From NCBI GenBank assembly GCA_944389465.1, contig CALXML010000006.1, positions 13-64,012 of the forward strand: a stretch of 64,000 nt of DNA. The letters run 5' to 3'. How positions within the stretch are numbered: position 1 is the first letter of the stretch; every line of letters begins with the position of its first letter. Below are positions 3,940 through 52,448 of this stretch, piece after piece. This DNA comes from an uncultured Alphaproteobacteria bacterium (lineage in GTDB: Bacteria > Pseudomonadota > Alphaproteobacteria > Rs-D84). The notes below the pieces were generated by a model. It did no database searches and was not told the DNA's origin. It was given only the letters and a program-made list of their open reading frames with translations. A program made the position numbers and the translations under genes.

Positions 3940-4133
3940 GTTAGAGTGCAGAGTACAGATAACAGAGAAAGTTACTCGTGTTTGTGTACAGTCCACCGTC
4001 CTTGTCATTGCGAGCCACGTCAGTGGCGTGGCAATCCATAAAAACGCATTTGCGGACGCAAATAAGTTTATATTAACTGGATTGCTTCGCTTTGCTCGCA
4101 ATGACAAAGGTGTGGAATGACAGCGGTCATTCC
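3914..4133. repeat. dispersed terminator-carrying palindromic repeat, full copy
   Basis: Shares about 100 nt with 14167-14306 (terminator hairpin, GTTAGAGTGCAG..ACAGATAACAGAGA.AGTTACTCGTGTTTGTGTACAGTCCAC.GTCCTTGTCATTGCGAGC). Internal inverted repeat CTTGTCATTGCGAGC (4001-4015) / GCTCGCAATGACAAAG (4094-4109), ending in hairpin GGAATGAC-AGCG-GTCATTCC. Confidence 0.8.
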
Positions 4134-4422: not shown

Positions 4423-4875
4423 TTAATCGGACAGATAATTGAACAACCCAGACCGGAAAGACGCATTGGACGCTGCGAAGTCCGCACAGTTGATCGCGCA
4501 ACGGGAGGCACAAGCAGACGCCGTCCCGCGGGCGTTGGCGAACACCCAAGACGACACGGCCGGTGATATCATTTTGCACCAGCAATACTTGTCATCAGTA
4601 CCGCCACTAACTTCCAAAGACGTCGTTGTTTGGTCAGCTGAACTGCCACTTGTGCTGGAACATTGACTTATGCCCCTTATTGCAACACTCGTCCCACTGG
4701 ATGTACAATTTGATGTCCAGTCAACAACATTACTCTCGGGATTAAGATAGGAACACGTTGTTGATGATGTTAATTTTACGCATTTGGTAACTTGGGCTGC
4801 CGGTGCGGGTACCGCGTTGGCCGGTGGAATTGTGGCCACACAAATCAGGCCGGCAATTAATATTTTTGATTTCAT
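4423..4875 (-). CDS. secreted Cys/Ser/Thr-rich protein (150 aa)
   Basis: Signal peptide MKSKILIAGLICVATIPPANA, 10 Cys, RBS AAGGAG upstream. Forms a tandem operon with 4127-4408. Confidence 0.6.
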   Translation of the reverse strand: MKSKILIAGLICVATIPPANAVPAPAAQVTKCVKLTSSTTCSYLNPESNVVDWTSNCTSSGTSVAIRGISQCSSTSGSSADQTTTSLEVSGGTDDKYCWCKMISPAVSSWVFANARGTASACASRCAINCADFAASNASFRSGLFNYLSD

Positions 4876-5078
4876 TGTGAACTCTCCTTGTGTTTGGGTA
4901 AAACAAAAACCACCGAAATTAAGGTGGTTGGAGGTTCATAGCTATATCAGGTATAGTGTGCTTATTCTATATATTCGCAGCCCTCCAACCCAAAACAGTT
5001 GGAGCATTTTTACATCTTGATTTGATGCCTGAAAACGGGCTATGACACCCCATCAATGGAACACCCATTGACAAAATA
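4876..5078 (-). promoter_or_regulatory. conserved structured 5' leader (copy 1) with intrinsic terminator
   Basis: Aligns block-wise with 51630-51866. Hairpin 5053-5071, hairpin 4983-5004, terminator ACCACC-N8-GGTGGTTTTT at 4905-4928 (minus-strand sense). See findings. Confidence 0.55.
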
Positions 5079-5107
5079 ATTCTACAGCACGCGCCCATAT
5101 AATGCAA
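5079..5107 (-). promoter_or_regulatory. sigma70-like promoter of the Cys-rich operon
   Basis: TTGCAT (5107-5102) - 17 nt - TAGAAT (5084-5079) on the minus strand. Positionally equivalent to TTGCTT-17-TAACAT at 51601-51629. Confidence 0.5.
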
Positions 5108-45520: not shown

Positions 45521-48225
45521 CAACCAGTGGTTGAATACACGGTTGATTTTCTGCCGGATATAACAGCCTATGACTTTGCATTTTTTCAAATCACGATTAC
45601 CGCAACACAACCACAGGTTGAATATTTTTAAAAATTCAACCAAATATGCAGATTACATCCGAACGGTTAATGTTGAATATGTTGTATTTTTGCCATAATG
45701 CTTGCGATATTAATACCAAATACAACCGATGGTTGAATTTATTGCGACGCTCAACCAAAATAATTGGACGATTATTGAATTAAAAGAACGATTTCGTTAA
45801 TGCCCCAAAATGGCAGGACAAAACACAACCTGTGGTTGAATATACTGCAACATTCAACCAATAATGACGCTGGCGAACCCCGAGCCACGAGAAGCGTTTT
45901 CAGCAACGCCCAAGATTAACAAGACTAAACACAACCTACGGTTGATTTTGTTGTAATATTCAATTAAGTATAGATAGCAAGTAATTGTATAGGCAGTTGT
46001 TTTAATATTTTGCTACAGTACCAAGATTAAATACAACTTGTGGTTGTGTTTATTGCAGTATTCAATCAAAAAATAATGTGCCAATTATTGGATTAAGAGA
46101 ACAAATTCATCAATGTCTGAAACAGCGTGGAAAAATACAACTTACGGTTGAATTTGTTGTAACATTCAACTAATGGCAGTGCGTTAGACTATTAGATTAT
46201 GCCCCCCAAGTTCAGTAACGTTTGGATTATAACCGTTAAACACAACCTGTAGTTGAATAATTTATAAAATTCAACCAAATACGCAGCTCTATGCCAAAAT
46301 GCCTAACAGAAATTACATTATATTTTGCTACAACCAGTACAATATTAGCATCAAATACAACTTCTGGTTGAATTTATCATAGCGTTCTGCTAACGACGGG
46401 CTCTGTCATTAAATTACAGATAGCGTTTTGCAATAATGTCCAGATTATCAAGAATCAATACAATCAGAGGTTGAATATTTTTAACAATTCAACTAAATAT
46501 ACAGGTTTATGTCCAAATAATTAGTGAAAAATATGTTATATTTTGTTGTCATAAGCGCAATTTTAACGCTAAATACAGCCTACGGTTGATTATATTATAA
46601 TATTCAATTAATCATAGGCGACAAGTGATTAGATTACAAACAGTAATTTTACCAACGTCCTATATTATCAAGCTCAAATACAACCTACGGTTGAAATCGT
46701 TGATATATTCAATTAAATACACTCCCAGCCAATTGCGCGGATTACCAGCATCAATTTCAACCTACGGTTGTATTTGATACATTCCGCACACCGACAGATA
46801 AAATGCAAACGGACACGATTTCAACTATAAATTCAACCTGTGGTTGTATTGCTCTTTGCATTTACGGACTTCTAATGAAATGCTAGACAAATGTATTTCG
46901 CAGGGCAATTAATAGACAATCCCCGACATTATGCATAATAATTCAACCTACGATTGTATTTAACCTTGTGTTTCTAGTATAATTCCAACCAGATAAACGT
47001 AATTAACTACTAACTTACCGAATGTAATTTTTTACTCATGGATACAACCTGTGGATGTATTACATTTGCACAAGTGCAGACGAGCGGATAATACGAGAAT
47101 TTAAACAAAGTTTCAACCCTTGGTTGTATTGGGCTTTGCGTTTGTAATGTTTTACTTAATATAACAAGATAAGTTGCAAACAATCGTAATTTTGATAAAA
47201 TACGATAATTTTTTACAACAATACAACCTATGGTTGAATTTGTTTTGATGTTTCCAGTATTTGCATCTATAAGGTTGGCAAACGTCTATAATCAGCGGCA
47301 AAATTGTTGACAACTCTCATTAGCGACATTTGCCGGTTTTGTCGCCATAAATTCAACCATAGGTTGTATTGTGGTTCGGGTTTTCCGCAATTTTTCTGTG
47401 CCGCCCCCAAAAGCATCAACCAAGCGACTACACCGCACAATGTAACTATTTTAAAAGTTCAATCCACATTAGGCACAATGACCAAATACAACTATGAGTT
47501 GAATATTACTTCTGATTTCTGCCGATTGTGCGAGCGTACAAGTTACACCGTCCTGTGTGATGGAATAATGTTTTTTCTGTTCTCCAATTGTCTGTTACGA
47601 AATTTGAACACTTTCGGAAGCCCGACCAAGTAAATTGCTATCTAAATGACTGATATGCATCGCCATGTGTGTAATATCAATACTAAATACAACTTGTGAT
47701 TGAATTTGCTAACGTATTCAACCAGTTATAACACGGTCAGCACATCCGGACTTTTAATGACGATTTGATAAAACATCTAGCTTAACCCACATGAATACAA
47801 TCTATAGTTGTAAGAAATACAAATTTCTATTCTTTGTTTTGTCGCGGGGACACATTCTGTCACAATCCGATTTTTTCTAAATTATCGGTGCTCAATCACT
47901 GTATTTTTATTCTTGCATATATGATGGCGTACACGGGACAATTTTTAGTCTTTTTGACTAGAAATATTTACAATATTCAACTACTGGTTGATTGCTAGTG
48001 CTGAAATCCGGTACTATTTTAGAAAACAATTAATGCGTTAAGAGCCAATACTTTTACAGAATGTAAATATACTACCTTGGATTGAAAAGTTTAATAAATT
48101 CTATCACTGGTTGAAGCGCATAGCTAAATATCAGCGTTTTTAACAAATTAATAAAATACAAAATTTTAAAAATGCTGCGTACAATGATGGGTTGCAACTC
48201 TGAAAAAACGCTAAATACTAACATA

Positions 48226-48248
48226 AAATTCAACCAATGGTTGAATTT
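48226..48248. repeat. perfectly palindromic 23-bp box near the array centre
   Basis: AAATTCAACC-AAT-GGTTGAATTT. Confidence 0.85.
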
Positions 48249-51043
48249 TATTATTCTGTCTAGTTTTTTATTGGGGCTTTGATAACCAAAACATCAAAAG
48301 GTTGCTTGCTAGTAATCAGCAGGACAAAAAACGTAAAATATTAAACGTAATTTCAACTGTGAGTTGAATTTTATTGGCTTGTCTTGTCTTTTTTTGATGA
48401 ATATAAAAAAGTATTCAACCATAGGTTGATTTTACGCCCAATATTGTAGTTGTTATCATAGATTTAGAACCAAACACTCGGATGGCGCGCACTTATGTAA
48501 ATTGGGGTGAAGTGTTTAACAAATACAACCACAGGTTGAATTTTGGTGTAAAATACTGCGGACTACCGTTAATTATCGTGTCAATCAAAGAATACATGTG
48601 TCCGACGAACATCCAGCAAAGCGTAATAAATTCAATACGAAATTCAACCAGAGGTTGTATTAGATTCTTTTCTATTGTACATAGGTGACCTTATAAGATG
48701 TATGCAAGTGGAATTTTATACTAAAACCAACCCTAGGTTGAATGAGCTGGCGTTAATGCAGGATATTGGTGGGGTGCTATCCGTAATCCAACAATCAATG
48801 GCATTATTATAAGTTGAATATATTTGTAAATTCAACCGTCGGTTGTATTTATGTCTTATTATCTCATATAAATAATGTTTTATAATGATTGTCCAACGGC
48901 TGTTGCAGATAATGATACAGCATATGTAGGCTGAACAAATTTTATTGTCATTACAGGTTGAATTAATGTCTGCAAAATCGCCTGTACCGCCATTTACAAT
49001 TATGTTTTGTTTGCTATTAGTCTTCCTTTGGTGGTGTTTTGGGGTGCACGGCTAAAAAATGTAACATCCACAACCACAGGTTGAAATTTCTGCTGTAAAT
49101 CTGCACTGTTTCCGAAGTTATCCCCAATAAGTCAATAATTGGGTATATGGGTTTTGATTAATTGAATAATACGATAGTTTCAATCATGGGTTGAATCTGT
49201 GTGCTTAATTTTGCGTTTTACAGCGGAGTATTGAATTATGAACAATATTTTTCAGCTATGCTGAATTTGTGGTGACGATATATGTTGGTGGTTGAATAAA
49301 TGACAAAAAAACAACCTTTGGTTGAATATTTATCCGTATTTTATAGACGTGTCGGATAAATGCTTTAAAAATACGAATTATAGATTAATCATTGGTGCTG
49401 TATATTTGTTGTCAAAATATCGGTAAAAATACCGAATGCTGATTATATACCAGAAGAAATACTAGGTAATAACAGACAAAAACACCATACAAAATTTAAC
49501 CATAGGTTGTACCCATGAGTAATAAATTACATTCGGTAAGTTATTAATAGTTTTAATTATAGTTATATGGTTTGTGTTATGTCAAAACACGGGGGTGAAT
49601 ACAACCATAGATTGAATCGTTGCGCAAAATCCCGCAAATTTACTTATTAAAATTTCTAATAATTCAGACAACTCATTTGCAACCAATGTAATTAAAGTAA
49701 AATACAACCACAAGTTGAATTATGACGCTATTTCTATTATAAGTTGATCATTTGTGTTAAGGTGTCTGAAGTGGAGAAACTTACATCAAAATCAACCCTA
49801 GATTGAATTTAGTGTTGGTATTTGTTTGTATAGAGCATTTGATTGTAGGAAACGGTTAGATTTTTCCAGATTAAACTTTTGTCATGTATAACTACTTGAA
49901 CTCTCAATCACTCTTGTTATTAATATTAAAGTTGCCAAAACACTGAACGCAATACAACCACAGGTTGAATTTATATTTAAAATCGTGTCTGTTTGCACTT
50001 TATCTGTCGGTGTGCGGAATGTATTAAATGCAACCGTAGGTTGAAATTAATGCTGGTAATCTGCGCGGTTGGCAGGAAATGCATTTGGTTGAACATATCA
50101 ATAAATTCAGCCGTAGGTTGTATTTGGGCTTGGTGATATAGGGTATTAGTAAAATTACTGTTTATAATCTAATCACTTGCCATCTATGATTAATTGAATA
50201 TTATAATAAATTCAACCACAAGTTGTATTTAAACCTGATAAGAAAGGAGTTTCAGAAATTGTAGATTATAATCCATCTATTGATAGTGTTGTCATTGGTT
50301 GAATGTTCTGTCAAAATCAACCACAGGTTGTATTTTTATGCCGTTGTTTCAGGCATTGATGAACTTGTTCTCTTAATTCAATAATTGGCACATCGTTTTT
50401 AATTGAATATTGCAACAAAATCAACCATGGGTTGTATTTTTGTGCCGTTGTTTCAGGTATTGATGAACCTGTTCTCTTAAGCCAATAATTATCCGCATCG
50501 TTTTTTTGATTGAACCTCGTGATAAATGCAACTACAGATTGTGTTTAATACTGGTAATCTAGGATGTTAACAAAAATTGTTAAACCAACTGTTGATAGTG
50601 TCGTCATTGGTTGAATGTTCTGTCAAAATCAACCACAGGTTGCATTTTGTCTTGATAATTTAAGGTATTATAAAAATCACTGTTTGCAATCTATTAATTT
50701 AATTGAATATTATGCAAAATTCAACCACAGGTTGTGTTTTATCTTGCTGTTTTGGGGCATCAATGAAATCGTTCTTTTAATTCAATAATCGGCCAATTAT
50801 TTTTTAATTAAATATCGTAATAAATTCAACTATCGGTTGTATTTAATATAAATATCGCAAGTGTTATGGCAGAAACGCAACATATTCAACATTAACCGTT
50901 CGGATGCAATCAGCATATTTAGTTGAATTTTTAAAAACATTCAACCTGTGGTTGTGTTGTGGTAATCGTTATTTGAAAAAAAACGCAAAGTCATAGGTTA
51001 TTACATCCGGCGGAAAATCAACCGTATATTCAATCTGTGATTG

Positions 51044-51194
51044 TGTCTTGCGGCGTTACAGGCGCGTCAACGCGCCGACAATCATTATTACGGGCCAGCG
51101 GTTCAGCCAATCGCCACGTATGTTTTATTGCCGCGTGTTGTGGCGTGCGTCATAAATAATAGATACTGCTCGGGCCGGTCGTCCCGCGCCAATT
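51044..51194. repeat. GC-rich terminal module, right
   Basis: Reverse complement of 45359-45520, with an approx 11-nt deletion and scattered substitutions. Confidence 0.85.
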
Positions 51195-51304
51195 TGGTGG
51201 CGGGATTATAAAATGTACCATATATTTAAATGCCAATTCGTCATACGACTTCTTTCACTTGTCTTGTTATAAATATCGTGTCGGCGGGATTTTAGCCGTT
51301 TGTT

Positions 51305-51317
51305 CAACCGGTGGTTG
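51305..51317. repeat. solitary perfect box outside the inverted repeat
   Basis: TGTTCAACC-GGT-GGTTGGAT. Confidence 0.6.
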
Positions 51318-51600
51318 GATTTGCCTTGGGTATATTCATTTGCGGGCGGGTGGGGCGGTCACGTTGTGGCCTGATATTTCGCGGTTATTGGAAATCGCAT
51401 AGTCATTATTGCATAATCATTATATTAAATATCGTCTATTCCCCATCGTTTGCGTTCGTTGTGTTGCCAGTGGCGGGGCGTGCCGTATGTGTCGGGACGT
51501 CACATCCATAAATTTGCCAAAACGCCCAAATGCCAGTGGCCACGTTGTCCATATATCATAATAATTCATCGCCTTGATTTTTCTGTGTTAATTTTTCATC

Positions 51601-51629
51601 TTGCTTTGCGGTACGATGCAGGATAACAT
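51601..51629 (+). promoter_or_regulatory. sigma70-like promoter of the Cys-rich gene
   Basis: TTGCTT - 17 nt - TAACAT, in the same position relative to the leader as at 5079-5107. Confidence 0.45.
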
Positions 51630-51866
51630 AATTTATGTTGATGGGTGTTCCGTCAATGGGGTGTGAGAACCCGTGCATACGCGTCGGAATATTGGGACGG
51701 TGCGGTTGTGCCGACCGTGTGGTATTACGACGAAAAATAAACTCCTGATATTTGGTCAGGAGGGTCGTGAATATAAAATAAGCGACACAATTCGTATGAT
51801 TGTTCTCAACCTCCTGACCACCAAGTTTTTGGTGGTTTTTCGTTAAGAAAAAACAGGAGTTTGAAA
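51630..51866 (+). promoter_or_regulatory. conserved structured 5' leader (copy 2) with intrinsic terminator
   Basis: Hairpin 51638-51656, hairpin 51742-51762, terminator ACCACC-N8-GGTGGTTTTT at 51817-51840. Confidence 0.55.
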
Positions 51867-52448
51867 ATGAAAAAAACATTATATATAGCACCGCTTATTG
51901 CGGGCTTGTGCAACAGTGCTGTTGCTTGGACGGCTGGTCAACAGTGTGCCGCCGATTATGATATGTCCACATATTATCAATGCGATTGCCCAATAGAAGA
52001 CAGATTGGCCAGTGGCTGGATTGTTGGGCCGTGTGATTCTTATGAACAAATCTGGTGTTATGATACGAATGGCGTTTGTGCCGGTGACGGTGGCGAGGGT
52101 GCATGTGGGGTATGCCACTGCACAGATTCTGTTGGTGATTGGGAAAAAATGACAGACCCGTTTATCGGCGAATTTATGCAACGCGTTATCACGACGTACA
52201 GTCATTCAGATAATTATTATATATGCAAGGCATCCACCCAGCGTGAAAAAGCATGTTTGGCTGGGTATTATAAATCTGGTACTTCTGGATTAAACTGTCG
52301 CTTGTGTCCGTCATTTAATGGTGTGGCCGGCGCATCAGATATTGGTGCCACCAGCATAACAGATTGTTATATAGCATCCGGCACAATATTGTCAGATACC
52401 ACCGGAACGTACACATATACACGTGATTGTTATTACAGTAACCAGTAA
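51867..52448 (+). CDS. secreted Cys-rich protein (193 aa)
   Basis: ATG at 51867 lies 7 nt after AGGAG. Signal peptide MKKTLYIAPLIAGLCNSAVA and 19 Cys. GYYKSGTSGLNCRLCP and the C-terminal TGTYTYTRDC motifs are shared with 4127-4408. Confidence 0.65.
   Translation: MKKTLYIAPLIAGLCNSAVAWTAGQQCAADYDMSTYYQCDCPIEDRLASGWIVGPCDSYEQIWCYDTNGVCAGDGGEGACGVCHCTDSVGDWEKMTDPFIGEFMQRVITTYSHSDNYYICKASTQREKACLAGYYKSGTSGLNCRLCPSFNGVAGASDIGATSITDCYIASGTILSDTTGTYTYTRDCYYSNQ

Follow-up and report, generated by a model that had tools for sequence, protein, structure and literature searches.

The 64,000-nucleotide (nt) stretch of contig CALXML010000006.1 from an uncultured alphaproteobacterium (hereafter the window) holds two copies of a structured leader RNA, each of which lies between a promoter and the gene of a secreted protein. 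Copy 2 occupies positions 51601–51866 of the plus strand, and copy 1, which was located by a motif search on the minus strand at ~5100–4876, occupies positions 5107–4876. The two copies are identical in 73 per cent of alignment columns (nhmmer E-value ~5e-10), and copy 2 has an extra 36-nt insertion that folds as a hairpin. They are the only two leader copies that nhmmer detected within the 64-kb window. In both, a hairpin has a 3' arm (GGUCAGGAGGG or GGGUUGGAGGG) that is complementary not only to the 5' arm of this hairpin but also to the segment entering an intrinsic terminator. Copy 2 belongs to the UGA type and copy 1 to the AA type of leader described below; both types thus reside within one genome.

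Copy 2 is preceded by a promoter at 51601–51629 (-35 element TTGCTT at 51601–51606, 17-nt spacer, and -10 element TAACAT at 51624–51629), from which transcription would start at ~51635–51637. The 5' part of the leader consists of hairpin P1 (51637–51657; GTTGATGG, a GTGTT loop, and CCGTCAAT), the motif GGGGUGU (51658–51664), and the 5' strands of two long-range helices, P2 (GAGAAC at 51665–51670, partner GTTCTC at 51802–51807) and P3 (CATACG at 51676–51681, partner CGTATG at 51793–51798); the P3 helix is also present in the minimum free energy (MFE) fold. Hairpin P4 (CGTCGG...CGACG, 51682–51732), which is variable in length, holds the 36-nt insertion. A conserved A-rich linker, AAAAATAAA (51733–51741; consensus GACGAAAAAnAAA in the family alignment A2), leads to P5 (51742–51764), the second hairpin in an earlier, sequence-only reading of this DNA. 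The 5' arm of P5 (CTCCTGA, 51742–51748) is the putative anti-antiterminator, and its 3' arm (GGTCAGGAGGG, 51754–51764) is the strand shared between the two folds. Then follow hairpin P6 (TCGT...GCGA, 51765–51785), with a conserved GAAUAU..AAUAAG interior; the ACAC junction and P7 (51785–51802; CAATT at 51788–51792 and GATTG at 51798–51802); and the pre-terminator segment AACCTCCTGACC (51808–51819). This segment can pair either with GGGGUGU, whose partner in the terminator state is AACCUC (51808–51813) and whose possible alternative partner is ACUCC of the P5 5' arm, or, over ~10–11 bp in the antiterminator state, with the P5 3' arm. A terminator scan places the intrinsic terminator, GACCACCAA-GTTT-TTGGTGGTT followed by a T run, at 51816–51840 (hairpin 51816–51838), where it overlaps the antiterminator by 4 nt. 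The downstream (cargo) gene at 51854–52448 has a ribosome-binding site (RBS; CAGGAG, 51854–51859) and an ATG at 51867, is without a separate promoter, and encodes a 193-aa secreted protein with 8.3 per cent Cys. The three copy-2 segments named by the sequence-only reading, CTCCTGA at 51742–51748, GGTCAGGAGGG at 51754–51764, and CCTCCTGACCA at 51810–51820, are all present; the string that it gave for the middle one, TGGTCAGGAGG, has its true position at 51753–51763, the label being off by 1 nt.

On the minus strand, copy 1 has its promoter at 5107–5079 (-35 element TTGCAT at 5107–5102, 17-nt spacer, and -10 element TAGAAT at 5084–5079), and its AA-type leader, for which both folds were computed, extends from 5072 to 4905. 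It comprises P1 (5072–5052), GGGGTGT (5051–5045), P2 (CATAGC at 5044–5039 and GCTATG at 4942–4937), P3 (TCAGG at 5032–5028 and CCTGA at 4951–4947), P4 (5027–5013), P5 (CTCCAAC at 5004–4998 and GGGTTGGAGGG at 4991–4981), P6 (4979–4959), P7 (CTATA at 4956–4952 and TATAG at 4946–4942), the pre-terminator AACCTCCAACC (4936–4926), and the terminator AACCACC...GGTGGTT (hairpin 4929–4908, extending to 4905), which was likewise found by the terminator scan. The cargo region spans 4889–4127, with an RBS (AAGGAG) at 4889–4884 and an ATG at 4875; its first gene, ending at 4423, encodes a 150-aa secreted protein with 6.7 per cent Cys, and a second open reading frame (ORF) of the same transcription unit (4408–4127) encodes a small Cys-rich secreted protein of 93 aa.

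To survey the family, 185,579 species genomes were scanned with the pattern GGGTGTTCCNNNNATGGGGTGT, which returned 113 loci, ~105 of them genuine. An independent metagenome scan with a pattern drawn from the 3' half of the leader only returned at least 120 loci; among the loci listed, 98 hold the leader and yield 62 further distinct near-full-length leaders. The distinct leaders thus number 101 from genomes and 62 from metagenomes (>160 overall), and an nhmmer profile search of the fetched loci added 19 more divergent copies, including "mini" forms that lack P4. Alignment A2 contains 90 non-redundant genome-derived leaders, and 61 metagenome-derived leaders were used for the three-way comparison presented below. 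Nearly all hosts are Candidatus Enterousia or unnamed gut Alphaproteobacteria represented by metagenome-assembled genomes (MAGs) from human, chicken, deer, goat, sheep, and yak; one of these MAGs, OH_HBB_125, carries at least 11 copies across six contigs. Enterousia is a member of the uncultured order Rs-D84, in which most genomes are <1 Mb (PMC12306168); together with its relatives in this order, it is common in the guts of animals and humans, and the lifestyles of these bacteria are unknown (PMC12306168). At least six leaders come from a MAG deposited as "Bacteroides fragilis isolate H07647-L1_cleanbin_000047" (CAVGNU01 contigs; L025, L026, L038, L066, and L080). They are nearly identical to leaders of Alphaproteobacteria bacterium UBA6376, and the CAVGNU01 record is probably mislabelled or mis-binned. 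Leader–cargo units often lie close together, two or three of them sharing a few kb of one contig (L017/L018 on DVJI01000012.1, L066:475-1715, and L107), which suggests tandem arrays of leader-gated secreted-protein genes.

Searched at gathering thresholds with Rfam 15, the whole window gave two tRNAs only, and comparison of both leader copies with the 4227 Rfam families at E ≤ 10 gave matches at chance level only, on the wrong strand or of the wrong type. One of these, to Phe_leader, scored 18.7 bits against a gathering score of 55 and was on the opposite strand. Literature on Enterousia, on Rs-D84, and on antiterminator or cysteine-rich leaders yielded no description of the leader RNA. The leaders are a previously undescribed family of ~200-nt structured RNAs.

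In the 101 homologs, the promoter (a UP-like T/A tract followed by cTTGtaT-N17-TAtAAT) is sigma-70-like and fixed in position. It ends ~6 nt before P1, so the RNA begins at the structure. RNAalifold and pair counts on alignment A2 identified seven helices, and P1, P2, P3, P4, P6, P7, and the GGGG/CCUCC pairing all go beyond what the sequence-only reading had seen. P2 and P3 together make a long-range closing helix, the outer extension of P2 being formed by the invariant GGGGU.U and A.ACCUC (RNAalifold pairs GGGGUGU, columns 25–31, with columns 259–264). Under terminator-state pairing, 96.1 per cent of alignment cells are paired, compared with 33–54 per cent when the partners are slid by 1–3 columns. 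Compensatory changes occur in 30 of the 49 terminator-state pairs, the covariation score is 0.408 (≤0.086 in the slid controls), and none of 500 shuffles reached the observed values. Individual helices are supported as well: P1 (columns 4–11/17–24) is 99.9 per cent paired with compensatory changes in 4/8 pairs; P2 (columns 32–37/253–258) is 100 per cent paired with up to four pair types per position (for example, GC 34, CG 25, AU 23, and UA 8); and compensatory changes affect 6/6 pairs of P3 (columns 44–50/241–249) and 4/4 pairs of P6 (columns 179–182/228–231). The terminator is present in ~100 homologs, and its stem (columns 267–273/289–295) is 98.6 per cent paired.

The core is fixed, while P4, the P5 loop (~3 to 16 nt), and distal P6 differ in length among leaders, and P4 is peripheral because the "mini" variants lack it. 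Several unpaired nucleotides are invariant: the A-rich J4/5, ACAC, the GAAUAU..AAUAAG interior of P6, and the GUGUU loop of P1. A conserved fold with covarying stems and invariant junction nucleotides is what would be expected of an aptamer. Because the columns of GGGTGTTCC and ATGGGGTGT were fixed by the pattern of the genome scan, their invariance in that set is an ascertainment artifact. Both segments are also near-invariant in the metagenome set, whose leaders were recognized by the 3' half only (G25, G27, G28, and U31 each in 62/62 leaders; loop UU in 62/62). There the GUGUU loop is conserved free of ascertainment bias, and the closing pairs of P1 covary from G-C to A-U. As a tertiary contact, a kissing interaction between the P1 loop GUGUU and AAUAU in P6 was considered and rejected, since the loop variants GAGUU and GGGUU, compared by eye, come without a compensating change. 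A pairing of GUGU (J1/2) with ACAC has compensatory variants in L052 and L121 and a contradictory one in L199.

The case for a second fold starts from P5. Its 5' arm, its 3' arm, and the pre-terminator segment occur only in matched sets, and no hybrids were found among the 90 genome-derived or the 61 metagenome-derived leaders. Two types exist, UGA/UCA/UGA (with G·U wobble variants) and AA/UU/AA, the latter being 1 nt shorter in all three segments. The genome set has 42 UGA/UCA/UGA leaders plus wobble variants and 18 AAC/GUU/AAC leaders, never mixed; the metagenome set has 33 AA/AA/AA and 22 UG/UG/UG leaders, with zero hybrids. Rare variants comprise UGU/GCA/UGC in L094 (3' arm GCA, pre-terminator UGC), CCCUGACC/GGCCGGGGGG/CUCCCCGACC in L021 (the CCCCGA/CCGGGG version), and, in L072 and L017, a pre-terminator C261→A that occurs together with G176→U in the 3' arm. 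Across the 90 non-redundant homologs, the P5 3' arm and the pre-terminator form a mean of 9.97 contiguous pairs, compared with 8.12 ± 0.2 after shuffling, and 0 of 1000 shuffles reached the observed mean. An antiterminator duplex of at least nine contiguous pairs is available in 85/90 leaders from genomes and 57/61 from metagenomes. As isolated duplexes, the antiterminator (-21.2 kcal/mol) is predicted to be more stable than P5 (-14.2 kcal/mol), and cross-class controls give -13.9 and -8.7 kcal/mol. At columns 267/295 of the terminator stem, the pairs are GU in 65 leaders and AU in 22, that is, G or A opposite the same U. The class-specific bases of the pre-terminator are dispensable for the terminator stem, and their match to the P5 3' arm therefore points to an alternative helix. 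The tracking of arm differences by three segments, which the sequence-only reading had proposed from the two window copies, is thereby borne out family-wide, and its logic of terminator, antiterminator, and anti-antiterminator comes out strengthened.

P7 (CAAUU/AAUUG) provides separate evidence. Its loop is the 3' strand of P3 and its last G is shared with P2, so P7 and P2/P3 exclude each other. P7 is nonetheless 98 per cent paired (columns 235/252 are AU in 84 leaders, UA in 6, and broken in 0) and appears in the fold when the antiterminator is enforced. Conservation of P7 despite its incompatibility with P2/P3 means that two mutually exclusive conformations have comparative support. The leaders thus show features that an attenuation leader requires: an intrinsic terminator (hairpin and U tract) between promoter and ORF, and an alternative helix that excludes this terminator and is maintained by covariation. 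For 90 of 101 leaders, the MFE fold is that of the terminator state, whether the RNA is taken at full length or truncated at the 5' arm of the terminator; in a nested model, the median penalty for enforcing the antiterminator is +12 kcal/mol.

Downstream of the terminator, a Shine–Dalgarno (SD) sequence and an ATG follow within 20–60 nt in ~97 of 101 leaders, a spacing that leaves no space for a second promoter, and 95 of the 97 cargo proteins have a signal-peptide-like N-terminus. Cargo of UGA-type leaders consists of small Cys-rich proteins (median 8.3 per cent Cys; ≥5 per cent in 63/71), whereas that of AA-type leaders is mostly Cys-poor (median 1.0 per cent Cys) with a YVD..KQDK-like N-terminal motif. 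Pfam recognizes almost nothing in these proteins: one outer membrane protein (OMP) beta-barrel, one PKD domain, and weak Ephrin_rec_like matches. The copy-2 cargo has 8 detectable homologs among 5.8 billion clusters, and its 82 per cent-identical ortholog (P0002, loci L001–L004) has the same leader. A 62 per cent-identical ortholog (L006) is without the leader; what lies 3' of ligA there is only a promoter (TTGACA-N17-TAAAAT) together with a hairpin, AAACCACCGATTTTGTTCGGTGTTTTT, that resembles a terminator.

Judged from these sequence comparisons, we estimate with a probability of roughly 0.75 that each copy is a promoter-proximal cis-regulatory leader of ~170–230 nt, which gates terminator read-through into the gene of a secreted or envelope protein and whose two exclusive folds are both under selection. 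An explanation that dispenses with switching would see in the leader a constitutive structured 5' untranslated region, or a terminated small RNA, that spread together with a duplicating gene family, its three-way complementarity being a historical relic, left, for example, by duplication of CUCCUGA within the element. Such an account would fit a lineage-restricted family that is linked to paralogous orphan cargo, the fact that most of the covariation reflects the split into two classes, and the strong preference for the terminator state in silico. We nevertheless regard it as improbable. The cargo families are diverse and unrelated (Cys-rich, Cys-poor YVD-type, OMP beta-barrel, and PKD proteins), and conservation of the leader with compensatory changes across unrelated cargo indicates selection on the RNA. 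The same genomes harbor both classes, with zero hybrids in ~150 leaders; the P5 3' arm and the pre-terminator change together in the rare variants, at bases that the terminator stem can spare; and P7 is kept although the terminator state cannot accommodate it. Moreover, a constitutive terminator would silence cargo genes that are without promoters of their own.

Several points weigh against a leader with two selected folds. A median gap of 12 kcal/mol is wide by the standards of a simple ligand switch. The main three-way covariation amounts to two ancient classes and a few rare variants, and therefore to few independent events. GGGG, CCUCC, and GGAGG are invariant, so that covariation can say nothing about their pairings, and single variants point both ways: G26→A creates an A-U pair with U263, which fits the terminator state, whereas G28→C in L072 and L017, accompanied by C→G in the P5 5' arm, is compensatory for the pairing of GGGG with that arm (ACUCC) and fits the antiterminator state. 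Finally, the cargo proteins, mostly without Pfam matches, offer no metabolic clue to an effector.

If the leader is such a gate, its terminator state would contain P1, P2 and P3 (extended by GGGGU.U/A.ACCUC), P4, P5, P6, and the terminator hairpin. This state is the predicted default on thermodynamic grounds and agrees with the order in which the RNA is made, each helix being able to form as it is transcribed. In the antiterminator state, the P5 3' arm (GGUCAGGAGGG) would pair with CCUCCUGACC and take 3–4 nt from the 5' arm of the terminator, P7 would replace P2/P3, and GGGG and the P5 5' arm (ACUCC), once both are released, may pair with each other. Given a default of termination and cargo without its own promoter, cargo expression should need relief of termination, which would make the leader a default-OFF, effector-ON attenuator. 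The switch would be thrown by an effector acting during transcription. Most plausibly, the effector would occupy or remodel the invariant 5' domain (the P1 loop GUGUU, GGGGUGU, and the 5' strands of P2 and P3) and block the closing helix; occupation of GGGGUGU and of the P2/P3 5' strands would leave CCUCC free to invade P5. Alternatively, it might stabilize a three-way junction formed by the antiterminator, P6, and P7. We infer both the direction of the switch and the nature of the effector, and for the latter we lean slightly, at somewhat below even odds, toward a lineage-specific RNA-binding protein over a small-molecule or ion ligand. Leaders that depend on proteins (BglG/SacY-RAT, ANTAR targets, PyrR, and TRAP) likewise terminate by default, have an effector-favored antiterminator that overlaps the 5' arm of the terminator, and recur in many similar copies per regulon. 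In the present leader, however, the antiterminator is a long-range helix of 10–11 bp that encloses two hairpins rather than a short RAT or dual-hexaloop hairpin. An ANTAR target consists of two tandem short hairpins with hexanucleotide loops (A at position 1 and G at position 4), the second of which overlaps the terminator. The leaders do not have this architecture: the P5 loop is variable, and the antiterminator is a long-range helix instead of a hexaloop hairpin.

A ligand-binding version of the gate, a riboswitch for a metabolite, ion, or second messenger, is a tentative option to which we give a little over one-third of the weight. Its aptamer would be either the four-way junction of the terminator state or the three-way junction of antiterminator, P6, and P7. 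The leader has much of what such an RNA would be expected to have, namely a large covariation-supported structure with many invariant unpaired nucleotides, an integrated terminator platform, a fixed core with a length-variable periphery (P4, the P5 loop, and distal P6), and several copies per genome upstream of surface and secreted protein genes. The c-di-GMP-I riboswitches also occur in several copies per genome before surface and secreted protein genes. These riboswitches (GEMM), like other terminator riboswitches, resemble the present leader further in being promoter-proximal and structured, with covarying helices, invariant junction nucleotides, and an intrinsic terminator that is opposed by a competing helix. 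They differ from it in that the leader is without an Rfam match, places the competitor strands upstream (the P5 5' arm and the GGGG "double lock"), and is restricted to Enterousia-like gut Alphaproteobacteria. T-box leaders, too, are large multi-helix RNAs with many copies per genome and an antiterminator that competes with a terminator, but the leader has no Rfam T-box match, specifier loop, or T-box sequence, and its cargo does not consist of aminoacyl-tRNA or amino-acid genes. A riboswitch is further disfavored by the failure of all 4227 Rfam families to match even at E ≤ 10, by cargo that includes no metabolism or transport gene for a candidate ligand, by confinement of the family to one lineage, by a single expression platform in all members and hence no sign of aptamer modularity, and by the large predicted bias toward the terminator state. 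It is rather unlikely, but would be of consequence, that the leader is a riboswitch or a comparably direct RNA sensor of an unrecognized signal (a host or community small molecule, a second messenger, or an ion) that switches on the whole secreted and surface proteome of an obligate gut symbiont. Such a sensor would be present in at least 10–25 copies per <1-Mb genome and would work by a "double-lock" strand swap, in which an SD-like GGAGG and the G-run GGGG exchange between two identical anti-SD-like decoys (CUCCUGA).

The sequence-only reading had also raised the possibility that a conserved leader ORF (MGVP...) mediates regulation through the ribosome, perhaps in response to Cys. Translation of this ORF, which begins in or after P1, would keep a ribosome on the 5' strands or on the P5 5' arm, and the antiterminator could then form. 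Short ORFs are indeed present in both window copies (37/35 codons at 51635/51641–51748 in copy 2 and 33 codons in copy 1), NUG occupies a second start position in 56 of 62 independently ascertained leaders and is followed by GGG UGU, and a ribosome within the first ~10 codons would mask GGGGUGU as well as the 5' strands of P2 and P3, which would prevent the closing helix. The claim of ORF conservation, however, did not survive comparison with more homologs, whereas the three-way covariation did. At the MGVP start position, the 101 leaders have ATG in 21 cases, TTG in 26, GTG in 19, and a non-start codon in 35, and a start codon is combined with a stop in or just after P5 in 15/101 (15–17/101 stop in or near P5). 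The leaders of the copy-2 cargo ortholog (L001–L004) have GCG in place of the MGVP ATG, a change that leaves a base pair of the first hairpin intact. The L/S codon difference between the window copies corresponds to two compensatory changes and a wobble in P1, and compensatory stem changes likewise explain codon variation in the ORF. From the second, near-invariant ATG (ATGGGGTGT), ORFs run for 6–78 codons, and the peptide is unconserved beyond its RNA-constrained first codons; this ATG is lost in 6/62 independently ascertained leaders through U24→C, which turns a G·U into a G-C pair and so improves P1. Conservation of the start codon was rejected as a sign of translation, as A23, U24, and G25 are constrained by P1 and the GGGG helix (by eye, A23→U accompanies U5→A). 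Neither leader ATG is preceded by an SD, whereas cargo genes have strong SDs. The sole recurrent Cys codon in the leader ORFs is the UGU within the invariant GGGGUGU motif, and the low Cys content of AA-type cargo contradicts Cys sensing.

The trp, his, and phe attenuators, with their 1:2, 2:3, and 3:4 pairings, correspond in logic to the pairing of the P5 arms (anti-antiterminator), of the P5 3' arm with the pre-terminator (antiterminator), and of the terminator itself. A conserved start, an SD, a stop kept in position over segment 1, and regulatory codons that match the cargo, all of which mark a leader-peptide attenuator, are not found in the family; the leader is without a conserved SD-preceded ORF and instead has an extra 5' domain of ~110 nt (P1–P4) conserved as RNA. 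We accordingly assign little probability to control by a leader peptide and prefer a gate operated through the RNA structure by another effector. On its sequence features, the family is a structured transcription-attenuation leader or an orphan riboswitch candidate, new as a family and familiar in its regulatory logic. A single RNA element appears to gate most orphan secreted proteins, Cys-rich as well as YVD-type, of Enterousia/Rs-D84, and the family offers a handle on the regulation of the interface with host or partner cells; it also delimits a regulon from sequence alone. For RNA biology, it is a large covariation-supported orphan leader class in which both switch conformations are visible in comparative data, and this visibility makes the mechanism directly testable by mutagenesis and by ligand or protein fishing.

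Some further observations concern the regions around the leaders. The RBS of UGA-type cargo genes is CAGGAG in 41/71 cases and CAGGGG in 5 more, with UCAGGAG in 11, compared with CAGGAG in 0/26 AA-type cases. In UGA-type units, CAGGAG is thus a fourth sequence complementary to CUCCUG(A), which may reflect added translational control by the freed 5' arm or merely shared ancestry. In five leaders (L009, L016, L031, L115, and L116), the terminator is followed by a conserved ~40-nt element, GTTGTGGTGATGTGACCAATGACAATCCACCGATTGT, instead of an RBS, and the ORF starts ~95 nt further on. The terminator-like hairpin AAACCACCGATTTTGTTCGGTGTTTTT of the leaderless ortholog (L006:240-340) falls inside the called ORF start and may be a remnant of the leader or indicate a different gene start.

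Palindromic elements occur near both window copies. Downstream of the second ORF of copy 1 (4060–4125, minus strand) lies a GTCATTGCGAGCAAAGCGAAGCAATCC-type palindromic element, and in the red-deer MAG leaders L007, L012, and L062, similar GTCATTCCGGCGAAAGCCGGAAT elements separate the terminator from the ORF. Upstream of copy 2, ~4.8 kb of the window (46500–51340) is without credible ORFs and contains at least 40 palindromic sites of the form (A/T)TTCAACC-N3-GGTTG(A/T)A, spaced mostly by ~105 nt in a degenerate tandem array in which some 88-nt units are 86 per cent identical. The array ends ~270 nt upstream of the copy-2 promoter, and its core, CAACC..GGTTG, resembles the top of the AA-type P5. 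At the orthologous loci L001–L004, the array is absent, and ligA precedes the cargo gene.

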